A stretch of DNA of 64,000 bases from Dehalococcoidia bacterium. Its GTDB lineage: Bacteria; Chloroflexota; Dehalococcoidia; UBA2979. The DNA is taken from the NCBI GenBank assembly GCA_965219085.1, contig OZ244720.1, positions 3,146,885-3,210,884 of the forward strand, written 5' to 3'. The notes beneath the pieces are model-generated. The model was not told where the DNA came from. It was given only the letters and a program-made list of their open reading frames with translations, and did no database searches. The position numbers were made by a program, and so were the translations under genes. Position 1 is the stretch's first letter. The number at the start of each line of letters is the position of its first letter. Below, piece after piece: positions 1,340 to 45,021 of this stretch.

Positions 1340-3772
1340 GTGCCTGACACCGCGTTGGACGATCTCCGCATCATCGAACTCGCCGAGGGGGTGGCCGGCC
1401 CCTACTGCGGCAAGCTCTTCGCCGACCTCGGCGCCGACGTCATCAAGGTCGAACCGCCCGAGGGCGACCGCGCGCGCCGCGCCGGTCCGTTCAGGGACGG
1501 TGAGCCGAACCCCGAGGGCAGCGGCGTCTTCCTCTACCTCAACACCAACAAGCGCGGCGTCACCGCCGACATCGCCACCGACGAGGGCCGCGAGGCGGTG
1601 CTCGCCCTCCTCGCCGGCGCCGACGTGCTCGTCACCGACATGTACGAGGACGACCTGCGTGCGCTCGGCCTCGACTACGCCGACCTGCGCGAGCGCTTCC
1701 CCGCGCTTGTCTTCACCTCGCTCACGCCGTACGGGCGCGGCGGGCCGCATGGGTCGTACCGGGGCAACGCGTTCACCGTGTACCACTCCAGCGGGCTCGG
1801 CTGGGAGACGCCGCCGCAGCAGGTGAGCGACCCGGCTAACCAGCCGCCACTCGCACCCGGCAACCCACAGGCCGACTACTTCACCGGTATCACGGGCGCC
1901 GCGGCGACGATGGGTGCGCTGTTCCAGCGCGAGTCGAGCGGCCGCGGCCAGCTCGTCGACATCTCCGGGCAGGAGGCGAACGCCAACCACGTGCGCCTGA
2001 CGATCTCCTCGGTCGTCCACACGCCCGACCTCGTCCCCGGGCGCGAGAAGGGCAACTTCGACTTCCTCGTGCCGGCCAGTGACGGTTATGTCTTCCTCAC
2101 TCCGTACAACCTCGACCACTGGTGGGTGCGATTCCAGCACCTCATGGGCGACCCCGACTGGGCGGCGAGCGACGCCTTCCTCACCGCCGAGGACCGAGGG
2201 CTCAACTGCGACGCCATCGAGCCGCTGGTGCACTTGTGGTCGGTGCAGTACACGCGCGCCGAGCTGTACCAGATGGCGCTCGACATCAGCATCCCGTGCT
2301 TCCCCGTCTACTCCCCCGCCGAGATGATGGAGTCCGCGCAGTTCAAGGACCGAGGGTTCCTCGAGTCCGTCGAACACCCCGAGGCCGGGTCGTACACGCG
2401 TCCGGGACCGGCCGCCGTGCTCTCCCGCACTCCCTCGAGCCAGGACGGGCCCGCGCCGCGCCTGGGCGAGCACAACGCCGAGTTGCTCTCGCAGCCAGCA
2501 GTGGAGGCCCCGCCAGCCCCGTCCGGCGACCGCCGTCCCGCACACCGCAGGGCGGCCGGCAACCTACCGCTGAGCGGCGTGCGCGTGGCCGACTTCGGGT
2601 GGATCCTCTCCGCCCCGCACTCGACGGCCTGGCTGGGCGCCCTCGGCGCCGAGGTCATCCGAGTCGAGTCCGAGCAGCGCCTCGACCTGCTGCGCACGAT
2701 GGGCCTCACGCGCGGTACCGGCGGCATCCCCGGCCTCGAGCGTTCCGGTTCATTCAACGGGCTCAACTACTCGAAGCACGGCGTGACGCTCAACCTGCAC
2801 TCGGAGCGCGGCAAGGAGCTCGCGAAGGAGCTGGTCAGCCGCAGCGATATCGTCACCGCGAACTTCGCGGCCGGGGTCATCGAGCGCCTCGGCCTGGGCT
2901 ACGAGGACCTCAAGGCGGTGAAGCCGGACATCATCATGATGTCGGGCTCGCCGCTCGGGCAGACCGGCCCCGAGAGCCACTCGACGGGCTGGGGTCCGAC
3001 GACGCTCGCGTACACCACCCTGCCCTACGTCACCGGCTACCGCGGCGGCACGCCCAGCTCGATGGGCGGCGCCTACCCCGACTTCGCCATCGGCGTGCAG
3101 ATGGCCTTCTCGATGATGACGGCGCTGCGCTACCGCGACCGCACCGGCCACGGCCAGCACGTCGACGTCGCGATGGGCGAGACGGTCGTCGCGATGACGC
3201 CCGAGCCGCTCCTCGAATGGACGATGGCCGGCATCGACCCGCAGATGCGCGGCAACCGCGACCCGGACTGCGCGCCGCAGGGCGTGTACCCGTCGGCGGG
3301 CGAGGACGCATGGGTGGCGATCTCCGTCGAGGACGACGACGGCTGGTCACGACTGCGGAGCGCCCTCGGTGATCCGCAGTGGGCGCAGGACCCTGGATTC
3401 GCCACACTCGAAGGCCGCCAGGCGCGACACGACGACATCGACCGCGAGTTGAGCGCGTGGACGGCCGGCCGCACCGCGGACGAGGCGACCGAGCTGCTCC
3501 AGCAGGCCGGGATCGCGTCGACGCCGGTGCTCAACGGCCCGGCGCTGGTCGACGACCCGCAGTTGCGGCACCGCGGCTTCCTCGTCGATATCGACCACCC
3601 CGAGGTGGGCGTGAAGGCGTCGGCCGGTATCCCCCTGCGCTACAGCGAGACGCAGCTCCACTATGGCTCGGCGCCGCTGCTCGGCGAGCACAACCGCGAG
3701 GTGTTCACGGGCCTCGTCGGCGTCGAGCCCGAGGAGTTCGAGCAACTCATCCGGGACTCGGTTATCGTCTGA
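1340..3772 (+). CDS. Fused tandem family III CoA-transferase (two CaiB/BaiF domains in one 810-aa chain)
   Basis: GTG start preceded by GGGAGGA. The N-terminal domain has IIELAEGVAGPYCGKLFADLGADVIKVEPPEGD. A second complete domain starts near 2575 (VRVADFGWILSAPHSTAWLGALGAEVIRVE). Both halves end in the conserved GxHN...EEF motif. Confidence 0.8.
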   Translation: MPDTALDDLRIIELAEGVAGPYCGKLFADLGADVIKVEPPEGDRARRAGPFRDGEPNPEGSGVFLYLNTNKRGVTADIATDEGREAVLALLAGADVLVTDMYEDDLRALGLDYADLRERFPALVFTSLTPYGRGGPHGSYRGNAFTVYHSSGLGWETPPQQVSDPANQPPLAPGNPQADYFTGITGAAATMGALFQRESSGRGQLVDISGQEANANHVRLTISSVVHTPDLVPGREKGNFDFLVPASDGYVFLTPYNLDHWWVRFQHLMGDPDWAASDAFLTAEDRGLNCDAIEPLVHLWSVQYTRAELYQMALDISIPCFPVYSPAEMMESAQFKDRGFLESVEHPEAGSYTRPGPAAVLSRTPSSQDGPAPRLGEHNAELLSQPAVEAPPAPSGDRRPAHRRAAGNLPLSGVRVADFGWILSAPHSTAWLGALGAEVIRVESEQRLDLLRTMGLTRGTGGIPGLERSGSFNGLNYSKHGVTLNLHSERGKELAKELVSRSDIVTANFAAGVIERLGLGYEDLKAVKPDIIMMSGSPLGQTGPESHSTGWGPTTLAYTTLPYVTGYRGGTPSSMGGAYPDFAIGVQMAFSMMTALRYRDRTGHGQHVDVAMGETVVAMTPEPLLEWTMAGIDPQMRGNRDPDCAPQGVYPSAGEDAWVAISVEDDDGWSRLRSALGDPQWAQDPGFATLEGRQARHDDIDRELSAWTAGRTADEATELLQQAGIASTPVLNGPALVDDPQLRHRGFLVDIDHPEVGVKASAGIPLRYSETQLHYGSAPLLGEHNREVFTGLVGVEPEEFEQLIRDSVIV

Positions 3773-15490: not shown

Positions 15491-15565
15491 GCGGAAGTAG
15501 CTCAGTGGTAGAGCGCCTCCTTGCCAAGGAGGAGGTCGCGGGTTCGACCCCCGTCTTCCGCTCCA
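15491..15565 (+). tRNA. tRNA-Gly (anticodon GCC), CCA encoded
   Basis: GCGGAAG acceptor stem, anticodon loop TTGCCAA, TPsiC arm GGTTCGACC. Cloverleaf folds by hand. Confidence 0.9.
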
Positions 15566-15639: not shown

Positions 15640-15728
15640 GCCGAAGTGGCGGAATGGGTAGACGCGACGGTCTCAAACACCGTTGGGGTTAATGCCCCGT
15701 GTGGGTTCGAGTCCCACCTTCGGCACCA
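15640..15728 (+). tRNA. tRNA-Leu (anticodon CAA), long variable arm, CCA encoded
   Basis: GCCGAAG/CTTCGGC acceptor stem, anticodon loop CTCAAAC, variable arm GGGGTTAATGCCCC, T-arm GTGGGTTCGAGTCCCAC. Confidence 0.9.
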
Positions 15729-18254: not shown

Positions 18255-19638
18255 AACCTGAGCACGCAGCCTGGTAGAGTGCTGAAAGTTTCTGGCACCG
18301 AAGGCCGTAGTTGTCTGGTCCAGGGCGATCTGGCCACGCCCTATGGTTCGTCGATGGTTGTCCGCTGCCACGGCGGCCTCGCGCAGCACGAGCGCGGGCA
18401 ACTCCGGGATCGCTACAGCGACGGCTGACTCGGCGTGGATATCTAGCGACGAGCGCGCGTCTGTAGTCAGTGTCGACGTGCAGCGATTCTGTCAGTCCAA
18501 CGGAGCAGCGACTTTGTCAGTACCGCGCTGGCCGCCGGAGGGTGCCGACCAGGACGCTCAGGCGGCGCTACTTCGCTCTCGCCGGACGGCTCACCCACTC
18601 GGCACGGCGCTGGACCCTGCACCTCCCGAAGCGCTGGCCCTCGGCCGGGCAGCTGGCAGCCGCGCTCGCGCGACTACGGGCGATACCACTCCCGGCCTGA
18701 CGCGCTCACAGCGCCGGCCCGGGTCCGAGCCTCGCGCCAGCATGCCGCGCACGCCTCGCGCTCCCCAGCTCCCGCGCCCTCAGCGCCCCCGAGCTACGCT
18801 GAGCGACGGCTCATGGCTCCGGCCCGCCCCTGGCACCGCCCGGCGAACGCCGGCACGCCCGCCGAACTCTCCGGCAGCCCGGCACCCCGTCCCCTCAAGC
18901 TTCGATCGGTGGATCCGAGATAAGGACGGTGCACTGTGACACCACCTTGCGCGAGTGCGCCCTGAAGTCGAAGGACGGTGCGGGATGACCTGAGTCGTCT
19001 GGAGGCATGCTCGTCGTCGCCAGCCGGTGCAAGTCCGGTCCGGGTAACTGCCAGGAGGCCCGGTAGCAGATCGGCGGCTCGGACCGGAAACGGTCCGGGT
19101 CGAAGCCCGATGTCGAAAGCCCTTGTAGGGGGAGCGACCACACGGTCCGCAGCATGAAGCGAAGCCTGCCGCGTCGTTAGGGTGCCCGCCGTAGCGCGGG
19201 GAAGAGGAGGAGCCGAGCCCAGTCCCTCGGGGTGAAGGCCATGGAAGGGGTGAAGCACCTGGAAGCAACCCCGAAGAACCTCCCGGCGTAGGGGGCGTGG
19301 AACGTGTGGAAGGTGGCGACGGGAACAGGGGAGGCCCTCCCCGGCCCGGCACGACTGCGGAGTGGTGCTGGAGCGGGGCGTCCTATAACCGGTGAGTAGC
19401 CGGGAAGTGGGCGGCCAGCCGGGAGGGAGTCGTACCGCGCCAATCCCTTACCCGACCGTGACCCCGGACGGGGTACGACCTCGCAACGAGGCGGCACGAC
19501 CGGCAGGTGGAACCTCTGGGTCTGACCGGGTAGCGTGCTACGGAGCTACGCCGACCTCCCCGAGCAGCCCCAGCACCTTCTGCCCACTCACAGCGCGAAC
19601 CACCCTCTCACTCCGGGCCTGGATCCGTGCCCGGTCAC

Positions 19639-29100: not shown

Positions 29101-29864
29101 TCAGCTGTACGTCGCGAAGAGCGCGAGCTGTGAGCCGGGCGTCGGCTTCACGCGCCGCACGATGAGCCGCACCGCGCTGGCGTCCGCCATGTGCTGGAAC
29201 GGCGTGTACGTCGTCTCGGCGACAGCGGCGCCGCCCGGCAGCCAGTACGGGATCGGCGTCCAGTCCGCTTCCGGTATCGCCTCGATCAGCGTGCGTACGT
29301 TCGGCTGCTGGCGAATCGTGACCGAGAAGCGGACGTCCTGCTTGCGGCAGGCGGCGACGACCCCGTGGTTGTAGAAGCCGCTGTCGGCTCGCATCGTGAG
29401 CTGCCCGCTCGCCCCGGCGTCGCGGACCCGCGCCACCGTCTCACGCAGGAAGTGGGCGGCGCCGCGCCGGGTCCCGCTCCGGCCGCCCATGCGCGGGCGA
29501 GCAATGCGCGGCTGAGGCGGTCGAGCTGGCGGACGTGGCCCCAGCGGAAGCTGCGCAGGAAGGTCCCGAGGGTGGACGGCGCCTTCACGGTGCAGCCGAG
29601 CACGCGCCCGGCGCCGCCGGCGCGCATCGCATCGGCGTCGTCGATGCAGTCGCCGCCGGCGAGCGCCGAGGCGACCAGGGTCAGCAGCTTGTCGCCGGCG
29701 TTCGCCCGCCCCGGCGCGTCACCGAGGTCGAGATAGCGCTCGGCAAGATCGGGGAGACCGAGACGACCGGCGAGCGTGGCGGGGAGCAGCAGGCCCGCGT
29801 GGTCCACGAGGCGGTCGTCGTCGAAGGCGATGTCTATCCGGTCGGGGCTGCTCGCTGCTAGCAT
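29101..29864 (-). pseudogene. IS1380-family transposase remnant. Two frames; C-terminal half missing
   Basis: ORF 29286..29864 reads IDIAFDDDRLVDHAGLLLPATLAGRLGL (IS1380 N-terminus). ORF 29101..29490 reads LTMRADSGFYNHGVVAACRKQDVRFSVTIR (middle region). Confidence 0.5.
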
Positions 29865-30659: not shown

Positions 30660-31217
30660 ATGGCCGAATGGTGGGAGGGGCTTACTGGCCCCCTCCAGGC
30701 GTTCTACATGATCGGGCTCGTCGCCGCCGCGTTGCTGGCCCTGCAGCTCCTGCTGCTCGCCTTCGGGTTCGGCGGCGATTTCGAGCTGGGTGACGATGCC
30801 GGACTCTCCGGGGCTGTGTCGTTCCGAGGGCTGACCGCGTTCTTCTTCGTGTTCGGCTGGGTCGGCGTGCTCATGGAGGAGACGAACGCGCCGCTCCCCG
30901 CCTCCGTGGCCGTTGCCGGCGTGGCCGGAGCGCTGGCCATGGCGGGTGCGGTCATCATGTGGCGCAAATTCGCCAGCCTCGAGGCGGACGGCTCTCTCGA
31001 CTACGCCACTGCGGTTGGAACCGTTGGGAGTGTCTACGTCACTGTTTCCGACGAACGCGCCCGCCCGGGGAAGATCATGGTCATGGTGCAGGGCCGGCTT
31101 CGGGAGGTGGCCGCCTTCGCGGAGCCAGGCAGTGGCGCAGTGGCGCCCGGAGCGCGCGTCGAAGTCGTCGACACCATCGACCCGTCCACCGTGCTGGTTC
31201 GCCCGCTCTCGGGTTGA
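30660..31217 (+). CDS. NfeD-like membrane protein (short form, OB-fold C-terminus), flotillin partner
   Basis: Three hydrophobic helices (LQAFYMIGLVAAALLALQLLLLAF..., LTAFFFVFGWVGVLM...), then a beta-rich tail GSVYVTVSDERARPGKIMVMVQGRLREVAAF. Sits immediately upstream of the flotillin. Confidence 0.7.
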   Translation: MAEWWEGLTGPLQAFYMIGLVAAALLALQLLLLAFGFGGDFELGDDAGLSGAVSFRGLTAFFFVFGWVGVLMEETNAPLPASVAVAGVAGALAMAGAVIMWRKFASLEADGSLDYATAVGTVGSVYVTVSDERARPGKIMVMVQGRLREVAAFAEPGSGAVAPGARVEVVDTIDPSTVLVRPLSG

Positions 31218-31270
31218 CGAGCCAAAACGTCGTCTCAGTCTGTGCGCACAGACACAGAAAGGAACCTCCT

Positions 31271-32731
31271 GTGGAAACTATCGTATTAGTGAGCGGGCTT
31301 GCCGCGATCGTGCTGATCGCCGTGCTATCCATCGCGTCGCGCTACAAGCGTTGCCCGTCAGACCGCGTGCTCGTCATCTACGGGCGCGTAGGCGAAGAGG
31401 GCGAATCGGCACGCTGCCTCCACGGCGGGGGCGCGCTGGTGTGGCCGATCGTTCAAGGGCACGAGTTCCTGGACCTCACCCCGCTGCCCATCGAGATCAA
31501 GTTGGAAGGCGCGCTGTCCCAGCAGAATATCCGGGTCAACACGCCGGCCACGTTCACTGTCGGCATCTCCACCGAGCCCGGCGTGATGCAGAACGCCGCC
31601 GAGCGGTTGCTGGGACTCGGATTGGATGATATCGAGAGCCTGGCCCAGGACATCATCTTCGGTCAGATGCGCGTGGTCATCGCCACGATGAACATCGAGG
31701 AGATCAACGCCGACCGAGAGAAGCTGATCACCAACATCACCGAATCGCTCGAGGTCGAGCTGGCCAAGGTCGGATTGCGCCTCATCAACGTCAACATTCA
31801 GGACGTGACCGACGCATCCGGCTACATCGACGCCCTTGGCCAGGAAGCTGCGGCGCGTGCCATCAATGACGCGAAGGTCAGGGTCGCCGAGCAGGAGCGC
31901 GACGGCGAGATCGGCGCCGCCGAAGCACATACCGCGCGCCGCGTGCGGGTCGCCCAGGAGAACGCGACCGCCACTGAGGGAGAGAACGAATCGCGAGTGG
32001 TTGTCGCCAATTCGGATAGTGCGCGCCGCCAGCAGGAGGCGGACGCCGAGCGGGGCGCGGTCGCTGCTGAGCGGGTGGCATCCGCAGCTGCCGAGGAAGA
32101 GTCGTTTGCCGCCGAGGCCACTGCCGAGGAAGCCCGCGCCGCGCGCGACAGGGCCACGCAGCACGCGGACTCCGTCGTTCCCGCTGAAGTGGAAAAGGAG
32201 CGGATTCGCGTCCTCGCCGAAGCCGCCGCCCTGCGTGTCAGCATCACCCAGGAGGGTGAAGCCACAGGCAACCTCAAGCTCATGGAAGCCGAGGCCGACG
32301 GCCAGAAGGCGATCCTGTCCAAGCGCGCCGAAGGCATCAAGGACCTCGTCGCGGCGGCGGGGAACAACCCCGGGGATGCCGTTCTGCTGCTGCTGGCCGA
32401 ACAAATGCCGGCTCTGGTGGAGCACCAGGCGAAGGCGATCTCCGGGATCGACATCGACAAGATCGTCGTCTGGGATAGCGGCGCATCCCGTGGCGCTGGC
32501 GCCAACGGCACCACCGCCGACTTCCTGCGCAGCTTCGGCGCCATTCTTCCCCCGCTCCACGAGCTCGCCGCGAGCGCCGGCATGGAACTGCCCGCGTTCC
32601 TCGGATCCGTCGCGCCGACCGATGGCGTCAATCCGCACGATCTCGCGGGAGCAGCGGACGGCGAAGGCGCCGACGGACCGGATGGCGACGACACGCTTGA
32701 TCGCATGGGAGCCGCGGACAACGACCAGTAG
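31271..32731 (+). CDS. Flotillin / SPFH (band 7) domain protein
   Basis: GTG start after GGAACCTCC. N-terminal TM region, an SPFH core (QQNIRVNTPATFTVGISTEP...IIFGQMRVVIATMNIEEINADREKL), then a long Ala/Glu-rich coiled-coil typical of flotillin/YqiK. Confidence 0.8.
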   Translation: METIVLVSGLAAIVLIAVLSIASRYKRCPSDRVLVIYGRVGEEGESARCLHGGGALVWPIVQGHEFLDLTPLPIEIKLEGALSQQNIRVNTPATFTVGISTEPGVMQNAAERLLGLGLDDIESLAQDIIFGQMRVVIATMNIEEINADREKLITNITESLEVELAKVGLRLINVNIQDVTDASGYIDALGQEAAARAINDAKVRVAEQERDGEIGAAEAHTARRVRVAQENATATEGENESRVVVANSDSARRQQEADAERGAVAAERVASAAAEEESFAAEATAEEARAARDRATQHADSVVPAEVEKERIRVLAEAAALRVSITQEGEATGNLKLMEAEADGQKAILSKRAEGIKDLVAAAGNNPGDAVLLLLAEQMPALVEHQAKAISGIDIDKIVVWDSGASRGAGANGTTADFLRSFGAILPPLHELAASAGMELPAFLGSVAPTDGVNPHDLAGAADGEGADGPDGDDTLDRMGAADNDQ

Positions 32732-34359: not shown

Positions 34360-35767
34360 TCAGTGCACACGGTCTCTGCGCCGCGGAGTCACCGATGCCC
34401 GCGCAACCCATTGGGCGACCGAGTTCTCGGCGCCAGCGTCCCCGCCTGCGTCGACTACAGGCGGCCCGTCACTCCTGGCGACTAACGGCGCCATGGGGGG
34501 CAGACCGTCGGCAAACAGCTCGATGAATTCGCGATTCACGAAGTCCGGCGCTCCGAGGATGTAGGACACCCACTCCCCCTCGGCGAGGGCATAGAGGGCC
34601 GAGACGCCGAGCGCAGTCCTCAAGTGACTCGATGCTGCCGCCCCCGTAGACGACGAAGCTGAAGCCGATCGTGATCTCGCCGTGCGGGCAACTCGACCCC
34701 CGCAGGATCACGCGCTCCTTGTCGGTGACAGCGCCGGTGAAGGGATCCGCACTTGGAGGCCCGTTGCTCCCGGCGATTAGCGGCGTCACGGGCGGGATAC
34801 CGTCCGCGTACAGCTCGCGGAAGTCCGCGTTCACGAAGTCGGGCGCGCCGACGATGTAGGGCGCGTAGACGCCGTTATCCAGCACATAGACGGCTACGAC
34901 GTACCTGTTCACGGCGCAGACCACGAAGTCCTCAAGGCCGCCCCCTTTGTAGATGCCAAGACTGAAGCCCTCGAGCACATCGCCGCGGAAGCAGTCGGAG
35001 GCGGGGTCGCCAGGCGCTTCGTGCGCTGGACCGCACACGGTAGACACGCGTGCGATTCCCGTCGGCCGAGGTCACGGTGACGGTGATCTCGGAGCCCGCC
35101 GCCAAGGGCACCTGGTGGCCGTTCTCCGGGTCCTGGTCGGCATCCGAAGGTCTGATCACGACCGTCGCCCGGCGCTGCGTTGCCTCTGCCTCCACCGTCG
35201 TGGAGGACCCGATCGTCCGGAACGGCCCGTCCCCGCAAGTTGTGACGTACCGCATCCAGTTGCGCCGGCGTCCGAATCTCGATCAGCCCATCCCCGTCAC
35301 TGTCGTAGTCCTTACCCACGGTCACGGTGAATCGCTGCGTTGCGCTCGAGTTGGACCCGCTCGCGTCTGTCGCCGAGACCGTGATGATCGACCGGCCCGC
35401 GGCGCCCGGCGTGATCGTGACCATCGAGATCGACACGCTCACCGTGGCGACGGAGGTCGAGGATGACGACGCCGTGTACGTCAGTGCGTCGCCGTCCGGC
35501 CCCTGAACGCGGCCGACACGTCCACCACGACCGCGCTGGCGCCCAGAAGGAGCGTGCGGTCAGGCGGCCGCCGCTCAACGAAGGCCGCGGTCCGAACCCG
35601 ACGACACAGCTCCCCGTGCTCCCAGAATCACCGGTGGTGGTTGTGGGCGGCACCGAGCCACGTCTGCCGGGCCTCCGTGGTCGTCGCCAGCCCTGAGCGT
35701 CGCTGCGCCCGTTCGTCATGCCATCGACATTGGGCTGGTAGCCGCGGTTGAGTAGAGCGCTGCTCAC
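34360..35767 (-). pseudogene. Fragmented surface-protein gene: Ig-like domain, a DSDGDGLIEI motif, and two copies of the unclassified C-terminal module shared with the giant adhesin
   Basis: ORFs 35312..35767, 34909..35442, 34469..35047 and 34360..34623 carry successive pieces in different frames. Examples: ISMVTITPGAAGRSIITVSATDASGSNSSATQRFTVTV; CFRGDVLEGFSLGIYKGGGLEDF...VYAPYIVGAPDFVNADFRELYADGIPPVTPLIAGSNGPP. Confidence 0.4.
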
Positions 35768-36630
35768 GGCGTCCTAGCAGAACAAGAGCGTGCGAACGCC
35801 TGAGGGTGTCCGCCTCGCGGGCGCGGCCGACACAGTGGTTCCCCCGATTGTTGCGATCGCGCGTGGCCTGGCACCGGGGGTAGGTTCGCCGGCATTGTGC
35901 GTCCGAATCCGGTCGACGCTGCCGAGCAGGGGCTCGGGGCCGCCATCGGGCGCCCGGCGCTGATTGCGGACGAGCTCGCGCAGGGGGTGCTGGTTCCCGT
36001 GCTCGAGCAGCAGGCCGACGCCCCCGAGCGCTGCTGCCTCATCACCACCGCAGGCCCGCGGCGCAAACCAGAAGTCCAAGGCGTTCCGCCGGTGGATCAT
36101 CGAGCAAGCCCAATCCCCGACGCATCCAACGCGAGCACCTGTAGCCCGCAGCCCAGCACCCCGCCGCACCCCCAACGCAGTCCGCCAGCTGACACCAGCC
36201 CGCGATACGAGCCGACAGCCAAGTAGGCACCCGTGCGGGGCGCGGGCGCCGCGGTGCAGCTCTCCCGGGCTCGATGATCTCCCTTGTTCGCGGGAACTCG
36301 CTCGTCTCGCTGGCCAAGGCTGCATTGGCCTGTGACCGATATATCTTATGTCATTGACCACGCGCATGTCCTCCTGTCCGATTCCTTCCGCGCAAGCGTT
36401 CCTGCGGGCCGAGTCGTGGAGGTTCCAGAGGTGCGTTCCAGGCGAACCCCGACCTGGGGCCTACCTCAGAAAGCGGGGTCAGCGGCAGCGCGTCCAGCGC
36501 CACCGTGCCTGCCGCCTGTAGCAGGATCAGTGGGTTGGCCGCACAGGATTTGAGCGACCCGAGCCGGCAATGCGCGACCTGTCTGTCCTGAGCTTCACCG
36601 ACTACCCCAGCGGCTCTGCTGTGCTAGTCG

Positions 36631-38610
36631 ATGATTCGGCGATCCAGATCATCACGACTGAACCAGGACCCACCTAATGGGCCAACCATCTTTGCGGGAG
36701 ATTATGCGCACATCAACTCCGTCCAATTGATCGATGGCCAGATCGTCACCTCGCTGCGTGGGTGTTCGAAGGTGCTGGGTATCGATGCGGAAAGCGGTGA
36801 CGTGTTATGGCGGGTCGGCCGGAGCAACCTGAGCGAGGAGAAATGAGTCGCTCGCGACATCGGCCCAGCGTCGCTGTCCGTCGTCAACGATCCCGTGGGC
36901 GACTTCTGCGGACAGCACGCGGCCCAGATTCTGCCAAACGGCAACCTCCTGCTGTATGACAACGGTGTTGAGTGCGTGTTCAGTCCATGGACGTTCGTTA
37001 GGATTGGCCGGGAGGGTAATGAGTACAGCCGGGCCGTGGAGTACGCGCTGGACTTCGTACACAACGAAGCCGTCTTTATGAGGGAGCACTCTCAGGACGG
37101 GGCGAAGAGCTACCTCGGATATTCCTCGGGCGGGGTCTCTGGGTTGCCCAATGGAGACTGGCTGATCCACTGGGGGTGGGTGGCGCCGAACGTCACCAGA
37201 TCGGCAACAGCGGTCACCCAGGTCGATCCTGCGACGGGCGAAGAGGAAGTTCGAGCTCCGGATCACCGACGCGAGCATGGACGAGCGAGACCGTCAGGCC
37301 GTTTCCCGCACGCCCGCCGAAGCACTGGCGCCGCAGCCGCAGCCGCTCGGGGCGACGCTGCCCCCGAGCGCTTTCACTTCGGTCTTCCACACCGGCACGA
37401 GCGACTCGCCGCAGGTCGCGGTCGCTTTCAACCGGCCCGTGGTCGACTTCGCCGCCGCCACGCCGTCGGTCACGGTCAGCGGCGCGAGCGTCAGCTCCCA
37501 CGTCGTGGTCGGCGAAGCGGCCAACGCCTACATCTTCACGCTGACTCCAACGGGCAGTGGCGACATCACCTTCAGCCTGGTCGCGAACACGCCCTGCGAC
37601 CCTGACGGCATCTGCACCGCGGACGGCGCGGTGCTTTCCGAGGTTCCCGCGCCCCTGGTGATCCAGCCGCAGCCGACACTGAGCCTGACGGCCGATAGCA
37701 CCGCAATCGCAGAGGCCGACGGGGGTGTAGCCGCGATCACCAACGGCATCACCCCCCCGACCCGCAGCAGATCGTGCTCTCCTTATCGGGCAGCGCCACG
37801 GCGGGCAGGGACTTCACCTTCACCGACGCTGGGGGCCGGACGTTCACGAACCCCTTCTTGCTCAAGCTGCCGAGCGGGCAGAGCTCAGTCACGGGCGTCA
37901 TCACCGCCGTCAACGACAGCCGCGACGAGGGCGATGAGACGATCAGCGTCGAGGCCACCTACGCGGGGGCCACGATCGGCTCTGCGGTCACCGTGACCGC
38001 CAGCGACGATGACGCTGCGCCGGGGCCCGAGTTGGAGTCGCTCGCAGTTACGACGCCCTCGAGCCGGTCACTGTATCCGTCGTTCGACCCCGGCGTGCTC
38101 CACTATGCGGTTGGCTGCGAGAGTGTGGACCACGTTCTGCAGCTGAGCCTGTCGGCGAAGGACGCCGCTGTGCGACTCGCCGTCGACAGCATCCAGAGCG
38201 CGAGCCGCGATGCCACGGTCAGGCGAAGCGGCCTGCACGCTGAGAGCGACATCGTGATCAGCCTCAGCGATGGTAGTGGCCAACATCGGACATACACGGT
38301 GCACTGTCTCGACGACGACTTCCCCCAGGTCCGAGTGGAGAGACAGCCGCGAGCCTGGGACGGATTGTTGATGGGGACGTATGGCCCAGGCAGGAACGCC
38401 AGTTGGGCGTACTTGTGGATGATGGACAACAACGGCGTCCCCTGGCTTCGCCAGCGGCTTCCGAGCAGCCACGGCAGCCAATTTCAATTATCTTGGGAAC
38501 GGTACGTATCCGTACGGGTACGTCGCCCGGGACACTACCACCGGTCTTCACGCGCAGTTGCTGGACGAGCATCTGCAACCTGCGGTCAAGGTGACGACGG
38601 GTGATGGGCA
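36631..38610 (+). pseudogene. Frameshifted 5' portion of a giant surface adhesin-like gene. The domain set is duplicated after the IS3
   Basis: Arylsulfotransferase-like beta-propeller piece: ILPNGNLLLYDNG. Ig-like: NRPVVDFAAATPSVTVSGASV...FTLTPTGSGDITFSLVANTPCDPDGICTADG. Calx-beta: SGSATAGRDFTFTDAGG...NDSRDEGDETISVEATYAGATIGSAVTVTASDDD. Cadherin-like beta sandwich (PF12733-like): LESLAVTTPSSRSLYPSFDPGVLHYAVGC...TYTVHC. Ends with the N-terminal half of another propeller cut by IS3. Pieces lie in ORFs 36631.., 36895.., 37277.., 37774.. Confidence 0.45.
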
Positions 38611-38641
38611 TGTGACCGGACCCCCTTCGCGAGTCCACCGC

Positions 38642-39466
38642 TTATGAGAGTCCAGCGTGTAGCTGAGTCTCCCAGCGCTCGGCGTAGGCAGCCGGAGCGA
38701 GCCAGCCCAGGCTGCTATGCGGGCGCTTCGTGTTGTACTCGATCCGCCAGTCCTCGAGCAGCACCTGCGCCTCAAGCAGGCTGTCGAACTGCTCGACCGC
38801 CAGGAACTCGTCGCGCAGCCGGCCGTTGAACGACTCCACGTATGGGTTCTCCCACGGCGCACCGGGCTCGATGTAGCTGCTGCCCGTGCCGCTGAACCGG
38901 CACCAGTCGCGCAGCGCGTTGGCCGTGAGCTCGGGCCCATTGTCGCAACGGATGTACCCAGGCGCCGTCCCGCGCCGGGCGACGATCCCGTCGAGCGTTG
39001 AGGCCGTGGCGTCGGCGTTGATGCTCCTGGCGGCCACGATCGCCAGCGCCTCCCGTGTGTGCTCGTCGACGATGTTGAGCAGCTTCAGGACCCGCCCGTC
39101 CGCGGTCTGGTCGAACTGGAATTCCAGCGCCCAGACGTGGTTCGGCCGCTCAGCGCGCAGCCTGGCGGCGGGCACCGCCGAGTCCCCCAGGCGCTGACGC
39201 TTGCGTCGTTTCACCGGGACGCGCAGCCCTTCCTCACGCCAGAGCCGTTGCACCCGCTTGCGATTCACGCCCCATCCCTCCTCGCGTAAGGTCGCCCAGG
39301 CCCGGCGGTAGCCCCAGCGGGGGTGGCCACGCGAGAAGGCGTGGAGTTCCGCGCGCAGCGCGTCGTCGCCGCGGCCGCGCGTCGGGAGGCGGCGCTGTGT
39401 GGAGCGGTGCTGGCCGGTGACCCGGCATGCCCGCCGTTCCGACAACTCGAGGCGGTCCTGCAACAT
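38642..39466 (-). CDS. IS3-family transposase OrfB (DDE integrase catalytic domain)
   Basis: HVWALEFQFDQTADGRVLKLLNIVDEHTREALAI...YIRCDNGPELT...RPHSSLGWLAPAAY matches the rve-domain D, D(35)E pattern. Overlaps orfA in the -1 frame. Confidence 0.85.
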   Translation of the reverse strand: MLQDRLELSERRACRVTGQHRSTQRRLPTRGRGDDALRAELHAFSRGHPRWGYRRAWATLREEGWGVNRKRVQRLWREEGLRVPVKRRKRQRLGDSAVPAARLRAERPNHVWALEFQFDQTADGRVLKLLNIVDEHTREALAIVAARSINADATASTLDGIVARRGTAPGYIRCDNGPELTANALRDWCRFSGTGSSYIEPGAPWENPYVESFNGRLRDEFLAVEQFDSLLEAQVLLEDWRIEYNTKRPHSSLGWLAPAAYAERWETQLHAGLS

Positions 39467-39495
39467 GCAGACTGCCTCGCGCCGGCGCGACGGGC

Positions 39496-39774
39496 TTACC
39501 AGTTTCCCCGGGCGATCTCCTTGAGCGCGTCGATCTCGAGTTCCTTGTCGGCGACGATCCGCTTCAGCCGGGCGTTCTCGCGTTCCAGCTCGCGCAGCCG
39601 TTTGGCGTCGTCGGCCTTCATCGCGCCGTACTGGTTGCGCCAGCGGTGGTAGGTCTGCTCCGAGATCTCGACCTGCTTCGCCGCCTCGGCGATCGTCTGC
39701 CCCTCACCGAGCAGCCGCTCCACCTCGCGCAGCTTGCGCACGATCTGCTCGGGCGTGTGCCTGCGTCGTTTCAC
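39496..39774 (-). CDS. IS3-family transposase OrfA (HTH)
   Basis: MKRRRHTPEQIVRKLREVERLLGEGQTIAEAAKQVEISEQTYHRWRNQYG, then a leucine-zipper coiled coil. Confidence 0.8.
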   Translation of the reverse strand: MKRRRHTPEQIVRKLREVERLLGEGQTIAEAAKQVEISEQTYHRWRNQYGAMKADDAKRLRELERENARLKRIVADKELEIDALKEIARGNW

Positions 39775-39855
39775 CGTGATGTCCTCCTCTGCCCACTTTC
39801 ATGGGCCAAAGGACTCTCATCAACGGTGGTCCCGTTTCAAGGGGTCGGGTCACAT

Positions 39856-42800
39856 GACTTCGAACACCCCGAGGGCGACTCGATCTTCACTCTCGTCGTG
39901 AACGGGCAGGCTGTCGAGCGCGACTTGAGCGCCCTGACCATCAACGCCCCAACCCCTACGGCGCCACTGAAGAGTTGCAGGACCAGCTCGTCTACCGGGT
40001 GACGCATCAAGAGGGTCAGGCGGACGTCCTGAACTCCAAGGAACACGAACTCCTGTGGAATTCCTGAGACCACATGGCGGTGGAAGGCTGCACCCAGCAT
40101 CACTTCGCCGGCGATCCTGATACACCGACTGTTCCTGGTTCAACTCGATCAAGGCAGTCGATGGCGACTACCTGCTGTCGATGCGTGGATGCGCGAAGGT
40201 ATTGCTGATCGACGGCGAGACCGGCGATGTGATCTGGCGAATGGGCCGGACCAACCTGACCGATGCAGAGTGGGCGGCGAGCGGTACGGACATCAGCCCG
40301 ACGACCGGCCCTGCGCCGCTCACCATCATCGATGATCTCTGGGCGAATTCTGTGGGCAGCATTCGGCGAGGATCCTCGGCAACGGCAACCTCCTGCTCTA
40401 TGACAATGGCAGCCATTGCGCGATAAACCTGGAGGACGGCAGAACCTGGCGAAGAAATAATCAGTTCACCCGGGTCGTGGAGTATTCCCTTGACCTTGAG
40501 CAGGGCGAGGCCACTTGGCTGCGTCAACACACGCTGCGGGGCCAGGAGAATGCGTTCTCTACCTCGAGCGGCTCTGTCGCGTCGGTTCCCAACGGGAACT
40601 GGCTGATCAGCTGGAGCAGACCCGCTGGCGGCTAGCAGCCACACGTCTGTGTTCAATCCCGGCGCGCCGCAGGTGGTGGTCGCCTTCAACCGGCCCGTGG
40701 TTGACTTCGCCGCCGACACGCGCTCGGTTGAGGTCAGCGGAGCGACCATCGACAAGCGTCAGCCCACGCATCGTCGCCGGGGAAGTGGCGAATGCCTACA
40801 TCTTCACGCTGACTCCGGAGGGCAGCGGCCACATCACGTTCCGCCTGGTCGCGAACAAGCCGTGCGCGGACGGTGGCATCTGTGCGGCGGACGGATTCCT
40901 GCTCTCCGTCGGCCTCTCCGTCACCACCTCCGCGGCGAACACGCCCGGAGAACGCGCTGGGGACGCCGTTCACCTACGCCGGTGGTGACGAGGTTGCAGG
41001 GCCCGAGTCGGGCGCCGCGACGAAGCGGAGTGCGCCCCAGGATCGCGAAGCAGGAGAACTTCTCAGGCACGCTCGACACCTACACGGCGACCGACCCCGA
41101 AGGGGTGACGACGTTCACGTGGTCGCTCGAGGGTGACAATGCCAGCGACTTCACGATCGGCGAGAGCACGGGCGTGCTTCGGTTCATGGCTCCGCCCGAC
41201 TTCGACATTCCCGGGGACAGCGATCGGAACAACATCTACCTGCTGGCCGCGAAGGCGAGCGACGGGACCATGACGGGCGAGTACGCGGTGAGCGTGGAGG
41301 TCACTGGGGCCGACGAGCGTCATGGACTTCCCGGAGAACAGCCCCAGGACGAGGGTCGTCGGCCGCTACTCCGCGAGCGACCCCGAGCGCGAGGGGGTCA
41401 CGTGGTCGGATCTTTCCGGGGCCGATGCGGGCAAATTCGAGCTCAACAACACCGGCCTGCTGACCTTCATGAACTCCCCGAACGACGAGGAGCAGCCGGA
41501 GTACGAGGTCACGGTCAACGCCTCCGACGGCGGCTTCACGGGCAGCCTCGACGTAACCGTGACTGTGAGCGATGTCAACGAGCCGCCAGTGGTCACGCGG
41601 CGGACGAACACAGGCGCGTTCAGCGTCGTCGAGCACAGCGGGACCTTGATCGGCGCCTTCAACGCCACGGACCCCGAGGGCGACGCGGTCAGGTGGTCGC
41701 TGACGGGGACCGACGCCGCCGACTTCGCGATCAGCAATGGCCCCGGCACGCCTGGCGAGCTCAGCTTCCGGGGCGCCTCCGGACTACGACAATGCGATCG
41801 ACTCCAACAAAGACAACGAGTACCACGTCACCGTGCAGGCCACGGAGGCGGACGACACCGACCCGCTGACTCGCGAGCTGACGGGCAGCCTGCCCGTGAT
41901 CGTCAGGGTCACTGACATCGACGAAGTGCCAACCGTCACGGGGAATCTGACACCCAACGTGGCAGAGAACACGACCGCGGTCACGACCTACAGGGCCAGC
42001 GACCTCGACGGCGTCGAGATCACGTGGTCACTGGAAGGGGCCGGCGCCAGCAGCTTCACGATCAGCGGCACGGGCGCACTCTCGTTCCGGAGCCTCCCGA
42101 ACTACGAAGCCCAGACCCGGCACAGCGTGACCGTGCGCGCATCTGACGGGACCAACAACGTCGACCGCGCCGTCACGGTCACCGTCACCGACGTGGATGA
42201 GCTGGAGAAGCTCGTGCTCATGCCGCGCCGGCCGCTCATCGGCATCGACTACACGGCTGCCTTCCAGGAGGGGACGGGCGATGTCGTGCAGTCGGCGACG
42301 TGGGTGTGGGAGCGCTCCACCAACCACAACAGCGGCTGGACGACCATCAGCGGGGCGACGGCGGCGACGTACCGTCCGGTGGGCGCCGACCGCGACCACT
42401 ACCTGCGCGTGACCGCCTTCTACAACGATGGGCACAGCGCGAAGACCCTGCTGGCGACCTCGGAGTTGAAGACGGCGCCGGACAGCACCACGAGCACCGC
42501 GCCGACGTTCCCGAGCCCGCTGTTCGCGGGCGGCGTGACCGGCCTCTCAGTCCGCGAGAACGCCGCCGCCGGCACCGACGTCGGGACCGCGCTGCCCGCG
42601 ACCGACGCGCAGAACAGCCGCTCAGCTACTCCCTCGCGGTCACGGGCTTCACCAGCGATCCGCCGTTCGAGATCGACGAGCACACTCGGCAGATCACCGT
42701 CGCGACCGGCACCGTGCTCAACCATGAGGGGCAGGAGACGTACGGCGTCACGGTGACGGTGCAGGACGACTTCAACGCCACCGCCAGCGCCACGTTCAAC

Positions 42801-45021
42801 ATCGCCGTCGAGGACGTGAACGAGCGGCCGGTGGCGGTCCCAGACATCCCACCGGCGACCGACGAGGACACGGGCGACCACCTTCGCCGTCCTCGCGAAC
42901 GACGAAGACCCCGACGACGGCGACACCCTGGAAGTGACGCTGACGAGCAGCCCGGACCCCGGGCGCGTCGCGCTGGATCCGAGCACGCAAATGGTGACCT
43001 ACACACCGGCTCAGAACGACCACGGGACGTACACGTTCCGCTACACAGCCTCGGACGGGGTCCTTACCAGCGCCCCCCTGGTCACGGTCACGGTCAACCG
43101 GGTGAACGACGCGCCCGTGTCACCGAGTCGGCGCCCGCGCGATCCGTGTCTGAGGACGCCGAGGCCGACGCACCCGTCGGCGAACGTGTCGAGGCGACAG
43201 ACGCCGACGAGGGCGACACGGTCACGTACAGCCTCTCGGGTGCTGATGCGTCCCTCTTCGAGATCGACGCCGACGGTCAGATCACCGTCTCGAACAGCGC
43301 GATCCTCAACGCGACCACCGACGCCACCGCCATGCTCATGCTCACCGTCACCGCCGATGACGGGAACGGAGGCGAGGCGACAGTCGAGGTGACCATCACC
43401 GTCACGGCCGGGCCGGTAGGACCACCGATCATCATCGGCGGTGGTGGTGGCGGCCCCTCCGGGCCCAGCCCGAGCGATGTCGACTTCGAGTGGAACGTGA
43501 CGCGCGACATCGATGATCTCGCCGGCGGGCAACACCATGGCGACCGGCCTCTGGTCGGACGGCGAGACGCTGGGTGGTCGACAACGCCGACGGCGCCGGC
43601 GACGCCGTCTACGCCTACGACCTCGCGACGGGCGAACGCCTCGAGCAGCGCGAGTTCGAACTCGACAACGCCAACCTCGCGCCTCGCGGCCTCTGGTCCG
43701 ACCCCAGCACCATCTGGATCTCCGACAGCGGCAAGGACAAGCTCTTCGCACACGACCTCGCGAGCGGCGAACGCCTGCCCGACTCCGACCTCGCACTGCA
43801 CCCCGACAACAACGACCCACGCGGCATCTGGTCCGACGGCTCGACCATGTGGGTCCTCGGCGACCACGACGACGCCCCCTTCGGCTACGACCTCGCGACC
43901 GGCGAGCTGGTCGCCCGGCACGCCCTCGACTCCGCCAACGACGACCCGCGCGGCCTCTGGTCGGACCGCGTCACGGTCTGGGTCTCCAACCACGACCCCA
44001 AGCGCCTCTTCGCCTACCGCCTCGAGGACGGCGAGCTCGTGCGCAACAGCGACGGGGAGTTCGGGGATCTGAGCAGGGCCAGCAACAGCAGCCCGCGCGG
44101 CCTCTGGTCGGACGGCGACGTCATGTACGTCGCCGACAAGAGCGACGACAAGGTCTACACCTACAACATGCCCGACGCCATCGACGCCCGTCTCACCTCG
44201 CTCACCCTCAGCGGCATCGACATCGGCGAGTTCCTGCCGGGTCGGACGGAGTACGAGGGCGTCGTCGCCGAGGGCGTGACGGAAACCACGGTCGAGGCCG
44301 AGCCCGCGCAGGACGACGCGGGCGCTCCCACCCACCCGCCCGACGCCAACGAGGAGGCCGACGGCCACCAGGTGGCGCTGGACGGAGTCTCCGAGATCAC
44401 CGTCACCGTGACCTCGGCGGACGGCAGCCGCGAACGCGTCTACCGCGTGGGGCTCGGCGATCCGGAGCGGGCAGCCACGAGCGAGCCCGGATTCGGCTGC
44501 TTCCGCGGCGATGTCGCCGTCGGCTTCAGCCTCCTCGTCTACGCAGGGGCAGCATCGAGGATCTGGAGGCTTGCGCGCGGGACCGGCACATCGTGGCCCT
44601 CTACGCGCTGCACGGCGGCGTCCACGTCTCCTACATCCTCGAAGCGCCCGAGTTCGTGTACCAGCCCTTCGTCGAGCTGTTCGCGGACGGCGTGCCCCCG
44701 GTCACACCGCTGACCGTCAGGAGCGACGGGCCGCCCTCAGCGGACCCGAACCCGGGCGCCGGCGACATCGTGGAGCCTGGGCAGGACTGCATGAGTGGCG
44801 ACATCGTCGAGGGCTTCAGCCTCGTCGTCTACGAGGGCGGGAGCGTCGAGAACCTCCGGGCCTGCGCGCGGAGCCGGGGCGCCACAGCCCTCTACACGCT
44901 CGACGGCGGCGAGTTTGTCTCGCTCATCCTCGGTGCGCCGGACCTCGTCGACGACCCCTTCCGCGAGCTGTTCCCCGGCGGGCTCGCCCCGGTCACCCCG
45001 CTGATCGTCAGGAGCAACTGA
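39856..45021 (+). pseudogene. Giant adhesin-like gene continuation: propeller half, Ig-like, at least 6 cadherin repeats, a 5x blade-like repeat, cadherin-like beta sandwich, and a tandem unfamiliar C-terminal module. Broken by several frameshifts
   Basis: Cadherin repeats with DVNEPPV/VTVTDVDE (for example WSLEGDNASDFTIGESTGVLRFMAPPDFD, LSYSLAVTGFTSDPPFEIDEHTRQITVATGTVLNHEGQETYGVTVTVQDDFNATASATFNIAVEDVNERPV). The reading frame hops between ORFs 40181, 40649, 41322, 41737, 42300, 43574, 43513 and 44511. One example: near 43570 CTGGGTGG where CTGTGGGTGG is expected. Confidence 0.5.
43537..44190 (+). repeat. Five tandem 45-48 aa blade-like repeats (consensus PRGLWSDGxTxWVxDxxxxKLFAYxLxxGERL) within the adhesin
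   Basis: Protein-level periodic repeats beginning GLWSDGETLWVVDNADGAGDAVYAYDLATGERL, GLWSDPSTIWISDSGKDKLFAHDLASGERL, GIWSDGSTMWVLGDHDDAPFGYDLATGELV, GLWSDRVTVWVSNHDPKRLFAYRLEDGELV, GLWSDGDVMYVADKSDDKVYTYNMPD. Confidence 0.5.

Follow-up and report, generated by a model that had tools for sequence, protein, structure and literature searches.

An unannotated module paired at the C-termini of Chloroflexota surface proteins, and its remnants in a Dehalococcoidia genome

A stretch of 64,000 bp from contig OZ244720.1 of a Dehalococcoidia bacterium (GenBank assembly GCA_965219085.1, positions 3,146,885–3,210,884; hereafter the window, with a G+C content of about 69%) contains two surface-protein genes that close with the same repeated module. 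What is this module, does it belong to one of the named anchoring or sorting domains, and what could it do at the end of such proteins? A preceding examination of the DNA letters without database searches (the sequence-only reading) had claimed that two tandem copies of an unclassified module of roughly 80 amino acids (aa) end each of two divergently oriented genes. The claim was confirmed by tblastn: searched with the four module peptides, the window yielded exactly four copies of about 80 aa, two at the end of each gene, and the divergent orientation was correct. The copies and the tail that follows one of them are as follows.

34450–34693, minus strand: module A2, second of the minus-strand pair; frameshift near 34598–34606, tblastn pieces in frames -1 and -2
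34742–34996, minus strand: module A1, first of the minus-strand tandem pair; frame intact by tblastn
44495–44748, plus strand: module B1, first of the plus-strand pair; frameshift at 44545 (G tract, 1-base deficit)
44785–45018, plus strand: module B2; frame intact, ending ...VRSN, with the stop codon directly after it at 45019–45021
34360–34449, minus strand: read-through tail after A2 up to the stop codon, exceeding the usual 0–17 aa tail of homologues

The interval 34360–35047, given earlier as the module region, does hold A1 and A2; its outer parts are the read-through tail (34360–34449) and, at 34997–35047 on the minus strand, a linker outside the module.

Pairwise protein identity among the four window modules was 50–63%. 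The tblastn E values between copies ranged from 1e-16 to 1e-30, while no fifth copy was present in the 64 kb, where the next best matches lay at E > 0.1; the similarity far exceeds what chance could produce, and the module repeat is real. As the DNA of the two module-pair loci was only about 68–70% identical, they represent old paralogues and not a recent duplication. Once the two frameshifts were bridged, all four copies could be aligned over their full length to the family definition: about 80 aa, Cys2 and Cys27, a GF(S)L(V)VYxGGS strand-loop, (I/L)GAPxFVN, a TPL strand, and occurrence as a C-terminal tandem pair. Against a hidden Markov model (HMM) of 175 modules from intact proteins, the bridged copies scored 119–135 bits, corresponding to the 10th–45th percentile of those modules (A1: 120.5 bits, 11th percentile). 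At the G tract of B1 the window reads GCAGGGGCAGC (G4), and the in-frame version is GCAGGGGGCAGC (G5), which reads ...VYAGGSIE.... Near-invariant positions were changed in B1 (EAPEFVY) and B2 (GAPDLVD), which would fit a recent loss of constraint. The consensus given by the sequence-only reading agreed with the family consensus from 174 modules, xCLRGxxxxGFSLVVYEGGSVeeLxaCAxxxxxxALYaLxxGexVSYILGAPxFVNxxFreLFadGlPxxTPLvaxSxGPP.

The extent of the family was evaluated with a profile built on 34 individual modules (alignment A1; alignment numbers are independent of the module names), searched against 1.84 billion cluster representatives. Matches were obtained to 845 representatives at E ≤ 1e-3, 355 at E ≤ 1e-10 and 172 at E ≤ 1e-30, so that the module does occur outside the two window genes and a purely local duplication was refuted. 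Architectures were counted in 144 newly returned sequences among the best 150 of the 845 matches. Exactly two modules were found in 134 of these 144 representatives, the chain ended no more than 17 aa after the second module in about 115, and 101 were at least 600 aa long (longest 5146 aa), most matches being of 900–5146 aa. A word-indexed search with the window pair had given fragments of ≤ 275 aa, from which systematic gene breakage across genomes was considered; this was rejected, because the exhaustive profile search gave mostly intact proteins of 900–5146 aa and the short fragments reflect a bias of the word-indexed search.

Among the 101 large proteins, 63 had a signal-peptide-like N-terminus (for example P0132, P0133 and P0141), none had a hydrophobic stretch (run ≥ 15) within the last 60 aa, and an LPXTG-like string within the last 80 aa occurred in three, about the level of chance. 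The passengers differed between homologues (cadherin, LRR, fn3, Calx-beta, Big_9), with a constant C-terminal stem and module pair; the common order of the stem was a Gly-rich hinge, WSD repeats, a Cadherin-like beta-sandwich (PF12733) and then the pair. Variable passengers on a constant stem and pair are the pattern that would be expected of an anchor serving many cargoes. Three to four WSD motifs per protein were present in 74 of the 101 large proteins. These stem repeats, 'PRG(I/L)WSDG.T.WV...D.L.AYDL..GE', measured about 45–50 aa each in P0123, P0132, P0133 and P0148; no Pfam or NCBIfam model matched them at threshold, with sub-threshold propeller matches only, and they are probably beta-propeller-like, apparently a second unannotated element besides the module. 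The terminal residue was Asn (...AN, ...SN, ...GN) in 67 of 193 homologues (35%) ending just after module 2, and about 24% of the 193 ended in R, mostly as ...GGR.

The module could not be assigned to any named domain. For the four window modules, no Pfam family was found at E ≤ 1 and NCBIfam gave a single 12-bit chance match; 34 diverse and 10 distant modules scanned singly at E ≤ 10 shared no recurrent family; NCBIfam matched nothing over the module in the tandem protein P0006 or in the intact proteins; and profile searches of the PDB sequences returned only matches of E > 0.8. Its description as unclassified, and as none of LPxTG, SLH, PEP-CTERM, Por_Secre_tail or dockerin, thus held, none of these having matched. 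Individual comparisons led to the same result. An LPXTG/sortase anchor (Gram_pos_anchor) lacks support, as there is no hydrophobic tail, the chain ends 0–17 aa after module 2 and there is no Pfam match. Likewise, no C-terminal hydrophobic segment, no CTERM model and no conserved neighbour at 78 loci could be found for a PEP-CTERM/exosortase system. Dockerin (PF00404), built from duplicated 22-aa Ca-binding EF-hand-like segments, gave no Pfam match and differs in length and secondary structure.

More instructive are the families that the pair resembles. SLH domains (PF00395) offer a functional analogy, which we propose on the basis of terminal tandem repeats on monoderm surface proteins, one anchor for many cargoes and non-covalent attachment without a sortase. 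However, SLH is made up of three helical repeats of ~55 aa that carry a TRAE motif, whereas the pair consists of two ~80-aa alpha/beta modules, each with strands and two helices, a Cys pair and the GGS and GAPxFVN motifs, and no Pfam match to SLH was obtained. CWB2 (PF04122), known from the Cwp proteins of Clostridioides difficile, is formed by alpha/beta terminal tandem repeats of about 90 aa that pack into a unit binding a wall polymer, and thus shares small alpha/beta repeats placed in tandem at a protein terminus. SPOR domains (PF05036) are of about 70–80 aa, often C-terminal, and bind peptidoglycan, the SPOR domain of E. coli FtsN being disulfide-stabilised; size, the b-a-b-b-a-b order of elements (b, strand; a, helix) and the frequent C-terminal position are alike, yet neither a PF05036 match nor a fold superposable on the FtsN or CwlC SPOR domain was found. 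The C-terminal domain of the type IX secretion system (T9SS; Por_Secre_tail, PF18962) similarly forms the folded extreme C-terminus, of about 80–100 aa, of unrelated cargoes in one lineage. It is a single beta-sandwich of diderm Bacteroidota with dedicated machinery, in contrast to the present two copies with two helices per module in a monoderm lineage, and again there was no Pfam match. The module represents a genuine domain family, widespread and so far unannotated, whose fold is predicted with confidence and has no close solved counterpart. The family is best seen as new and its role as a familiar one, that of an accessory or anchor domain at the C-terminus of surface proteins.

The earlier suggestion of a folded unit was supported by structure prediction of a single module. 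The AlphaFold2 model of A1, from the 34-sequence alignment, had a mean predicted local distance difference test score (pLDDT) of 91.8 and a predicted template modelling score (pTM) of 0.79, with a strand at 10–16, a helix at 21–30, strands at 33–40 and 43–48, a helix at 53–62 and a strand at 71–77 (b-a-b-b-a-b); each module is modelled with two helices and, besides four main strands, a short one at the N-terminus. The tandem pair of P0006, predicted from 53 homologues (alignment A3), reached a pLDDT of 88.3 and a pTM of 0.76, which suggests that the two modules hold a defined mutual packing and orientation. Invariant or near-invariant residues were C2, G5, G10, F11, L13, G18, G19, S20, L24, C27, A28 and A35, followed in the second half by Y37, G42, I48, A51, P52, V55, N56, F59, L62, G66, P72 and L73. 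The conserved Cys pair that had been pointed out before was found in 363 of 365 full modules, and both residues are missing in the Cys-less branch described below. Such conservation is what an extracellular disulfide would lead one to expect, and a Cys2–Cys27 bond probably links the N-terminal strand to helix 1. GGS and GAPxFVN were the best-conserved polar/glycine motifs and lie at two strand-to-helix junctions. Such junctions of alpha/beta domains are a common binding site for small, often anionic, groups, and by analogy they may serve so here. The modules are acidic, with a median isoelectric point (pI) of 4.3. Mean identity was 0.61 among first modules, 0.57 among second modules and 0.56 across positions, by which first and second modules appear weakly differentiated.

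The distribution was scanned in one genome per GTDB species, giving 176 module-encoding stretches, from which 78 loci were kept; because two conserved peptide patterns were used, the scan sampled only the Cys-containing subfamily. All 78 kept loci were in metagenome-assembled genomes (MAGs) titled Tepidiformaceae, Dehalococcoidia or Chloroflexi bacterium, and the best-sampled genomes (OZ253575.1, OZ246422.1 and OZ253555.1) had 9–11 loci each, partly as tandem gene arrays. The Cys-less branch is represented by P0244 and P0249, in which five Cys-less GG(S/T)...(I/V)GAPDFVN copies are spread along the protein among immunoglobulin (Ig)-like units, the last copy ending the chain. A comparison of their profile (alignment A2) with the module profile (alignment A1) gave an hhalign probability of 99.3% and an E value of 5e-20, although these copies differ from the window module by the absence of the Cys pair and of the N-terminal CLRG strand, by their dispersal and by their partner domains. 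Both proteins are unannotated apart from Kelch repeats in P0249, and a follow-up search with the Cys-less modules gave one match. By these profiles, a wider superfamily takes in both the Cys-containing subfamily and the Cys-less branch. The proposed specificity of the module to this lineage stands for the Cys-containing form, confined to MAGs of the three titles above, and does not extend to the superfamily, since Cys-less relatives exist.

The module pair gave no tblastn match in the plasmid and phage collections, for which reason it was rejected as cargo of mobile elements. Family remnants occur elsewhere too: at 2418–3554 and 9472–9720 of L001/L002, which come from a Tepidiformaceae MAG, a truncated module pair (P0063) stands alone beside giant LRR/fn3 genes, a DDE transposase, a fragment of an SNF2-like gene and a large serine recombinase.

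Gene neighbourhoods were surveyed by calling and clustering open reading frames (ORFs) within 6 kb to either side of the 78 loci. Apart from the adhesin family, of which 37 further paralogues lay downstream, no family occurred at more than 7 of these loci. The commonest among the others were IS110-type, IS630-type (DDE_3) and DDE_Tnp_1 transposases, a helix-turn-helix protein, possibly an IS21-type transposase (Pfam matched the HTH domains only), a Replic_Relax protein and a histidine kinase/response-regulator-like protein identified by eye. An annotated 214-kb ENA contig (L003), syntenic with the window over 31.4–52 kb at 98–99% identity, held within 10 kb of the locus only metabolic genes, a flotillin gene and insertion sequence (IS) elements. 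Co-occurrence with a dedicated sortase or exosortase, which had been put forward as a check, was not seen in the neighbourhoods covered, neither beside the 78 loci nor in the syntenic L003.

The family Tepidiformaceae is reported to be common in marine sponges. The 'SB06xx_bin' series of MAG names is also found among sponge Poribacteria bins (PMC7883664), and from the literature and the MAG naming we infer a sponge origin of the module-bearing MAGs. Genes for cadherin, fn3 and LRR proteins are enriched in sponge symbionts, few lineages of which encode classical secretion systems (PMC8163846). Cultured Tepidiforma is monoderm, with a cytoplasmic membrane, peptidoglycan and a tetragonal S-layer; the S-layer bears unexplained, regularly spaced complexes seen by cryo-electron tomography, and the Tepidiformales lack outer-membrane genes (PMC10284905). 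In a monoderm lineage, an outer membrane for insertion is absent.

For the role of the module, the sequence-only reading had proposed cell-surface attachment or dimerisation, both of which stay putative. Taken together, the signal peptides, the conserved terminal pair on many cargoes, the lack of a hydrophobic or covalent-anchor tail and the monoderm S-layer envelope lead us to infer, tentatively and at slightly less than even chances, that the module pair is a disulfide-stabilised, non-covalent anchoring unit of the cell envelope. A Sec-type signal peptide would export the giant protein, after which the C-terminal stem would keep the adhesion domains on the cell. The module pair would act as one compact, two-lobed docking unit that binds an envelope component non-covalently, the target likely being the S-layer, peptidoglycan or an associated polymer, and would work like the SLH or CWB2 repeats of Firmicutes without belonging to either. 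A more specific form of this proposal, in which the pair is a Chloroflexota-specific envelope-docking device of new fold that displays the eukaryote-like adhesins of sponge symbionts, and may even correspond to the S-layer complexes of Tepidiforma (PMC10284905), is possible but doubtful. Three observations weigh against the anchoring proposal. The acidic character of the modules (median pI 4.3) is unlike that of many wall-binding domains for anionic polymers. Some giant adhesin-like proteins in the same genomes (L001) end in fn3 or cadherin-like domains without the pair, so the pair is not a universal anchor; a search for other anchors on these pair-less L001 neighbours met with just those domains at the C-termini. 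Finally, the five dispersed Cys-less copies would fit a general binding or structural repeat equally well.

That last observation leads to the alternative that survives best, in which the pair is a lectin-like or matrix-binding head for sponge material or other cells and not a holder on the cell's own envelope. Up to five copies among Ig-like units in the distant relatives are typical of binding repeats, adhesion-type domains are enriched in sponge symbionts (PMC8163846), and the position of GGS and GAPxFVN at strand-to-helix junctions would provide candidate binding sites for small anionic groups. Yet ligand binding would more obviously fall to the variable N-terminal passengers, a pair conserved so strictly at the C-terminus of diverse cargoes better suits a common, self-directed function, and a host-binding role would leave the protein without an identified means of cell retention, there being no transmembrane segment, lipobox or LPXTG motif. 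We therefore regard this role as unlikely, if still worth serious consideration.

Oligomerisation appears less probable again. Here the pair would form an intramolecular pseudo-dimer or swap between chains, bundling the giant proteins into fibres or lattices, as could be suggested by the almost invariant two-copy rule (134 of 144) and by the tandem pTM of 0.76, which points to modules that pack together. Self-packing is, however, equally expected of a two-lobed binding unit, and the strict terminal position would be left unexplained.

Its extreme C-terminal position and conservation over many cargoes could also make the pair a sorting or secretion domain for an unknown machinery, possibly removed afterwards, as an analogue of the T9SS C-terminal domain. 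A constrained terminus is faintly hinted at by the final Asn (67 of 193) and the ...GGR endings, but the terminal residue is not invariant. Sec-type signal peptides are already present in a monoderm lineage (PMC10284905), no conserved machinery gene was found beside the 78 loci, and two helices per module exclude a beta-sandwich of the T9SS type; this role is thus very improbable. Chance similarity, local duplication or an assembly artefact, to which two frameshifted copies out of four and a region full of frame changes might have pointed, is already refuted by the inter-copy E values (1e-16 to 1e-30), the hundreds of intact homologues in independent assemblies, the confident predicted fold and the intact state of the other window genes.

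Returning to the window itself, the state of the two genes was judged by a frame plot of third-position G+C content (GC3) and a simple coding-frame Viterbi model. Most window genes outside the decayed region had long uninterrupted frames. The plus-strand gene, called a giant adhesin in the sequence-only reading, is not intact: eight frame segments, and hence at least 7 frame changes, were found between 41030 and 45018, and an IS3 element lies at 38609–39856. The stitched order of the plus-strand gene was cadherin repeats, Big_9, Gly-rich hinge, PRG(I/L)WSDG repeats, PF12733 and two modules. The remaining parts of both genes are listed below.

35034–35201, minus strand: Cadherin-like beta-sandwich remnant upstream of A1 in another frame; its motif EITVTVTSADGNRTRVYRV recurs identically in PF12733 on the plus strand
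35236–35499, minus strand: Ig-like remnant of the minus-strand gene; sequence upstream of ~35500 is no longer coding-like
36855–38608, plus strand: upstream part of the plus-strand pseudogene (ASST-like, Ig-like, Calx-like), with frame changes; PF05935, E 6e-8
38609–39856, minus strand: IS3-family insertion sequence (orfA/orfB; Pfam rve, rve_3, HTH_21), interrupting the ASST-like domain of the plus-strand gene
41030–43557, plus strand: passenger of cadherin and Big_9 repeats in six frame segments; Pfam Cadherin 3e-31, Big_9 2e-26
43422–43499, plus strand: Gly-rich hinge (PPIIIGGGGGGPSGPSPSDVDFEWNV), start of the conserved C-terminal stem; also in P0123, P0132, P0133 and P0148
43601–44173, plus strand: 'PRG(I/L)WSDG' repeats of the stem, 4 motifs, from the stitched translation
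44183–44449, plus strand: Cadherin-like beta-sandwich (PF12733), Pfam E 7e-6, 26.8 bits (cut-off 24.2), directly 5' of the module pair

Of the minus-strand gene about 1.1 kb is left, in which the module pair is preceded by half of a Cadherin-like domain and, before that, an Ig-like segment. An intact homologue of this remnant, an ORF of at least 2193 aa, was found in L005 (Tepidiformaceae MAG) with 76% DNA identity over 34422–35201; L005 lies in OZ246422.1, and an intact gene with the pair ends at L005:6582. The IS3 element looks complete, with 16-nt terminal inverted repeats (38609–38624 and 39841–39856), orfA at 39502–39789 and orfB at 38726–39501, both on the minus strand; the frame change between orfA and orfB is usual for IS3.

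Compared with the window, L003 has a DDE transposase (DDE_Tnp_1) inside A1 (~34778) and an IS110 element at ~43075, and lacks window positions 36423–42350 (5.9 kb). The frameshifts at 34600, 43557 and 44545 were common to the window and L003. The G tract at 44545 is G4 in both and G6 in a third contig (L004) that is 96% identical. Given the IS3 insertion, the multiple frame changes, the truncation and the lesions common to the near-identical contig, we conclude that both genes of the window are pseudogenes in the course of decay, in a region rich in IS elements and structurally unstable. A general assembly error behind the frameshifts was rejected, as the other window genes are intact and several lesions are also present in the structurally distinct, 99%-identical contig. 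At 34494–34500, a homopolymer reads G6 in the window but G7 in L003; single differences in homopolymer length, here and in the tract at 44541–44548, may be real slippage or a long-read consensus error. Structural instability between these close strains was seen at 36423–42350, ~34778 and ~43075. A shufflon-like inversion was also considered, from the inverted pairs lying 9.5 kb apart and a serine recombinase near the L001 homologue, and was rejected because the two pairs are only about 68–70% identical as DNA, no recombinase lies between the window copies and none is conserved beside the 78 loci.

On the plus strand, two arylsulfotransferase-like segments (36855–37750 and 39857–41029) are each followed by an 'AFNRPVVDF...ANAYIFTLTP...PC..GICTADG' Ig-like domain, and the 'AFNRPVVDF...' domain also opens the homologue P0123. 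The duplication points to a single very long gene, or to two paralogues in tandem, before decay set in. Adjoining the decayed region at 30692–32728 (plus strand), an intact-looking membrane-protein gene, taken as NfeD-like, is followed by a flotillin/Band_7 gene, and this part is conserved in L003. Elsewhere in the window, a DDE_Tnp_1_4 transposase remnant split by a frameshift (29106–29850, minus strand; Pfam 6e-10), a group II intron D1-D4 fragment (19021–19157, plus strand; Rfam, 104 bits) in a low-coding stretch at 15.3–19.7 kb, and tRNA-Gly(GCC) and tRNA-Leu(CAA) (15491–15565 and 15640–15728, plus strand; Rfam) could be recognised.

For this window the meaning is more modest, as what is left of its two genes is decaying amid IS elements. 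For the family, the finding bears on how cadherin, fn3 and LRR proteins are exported and presented in sponge symbionts (PMC8163846): many such proteins in one lineage share an unannotated stem and module pair, with 9–11 genes per genome in the best-sampled MAGs. The module HMM provides a marker by which the surface-displayed repertoire can be listed, and the module itself is a small, well-folding domain and a candidate for Pfam and for structural study. If the more specific proposal of a Chloroflexota-specific docking device is true, the pair would form a surface-anchoring class of its own beside SLH, CWB2, LysM and sortase signals.

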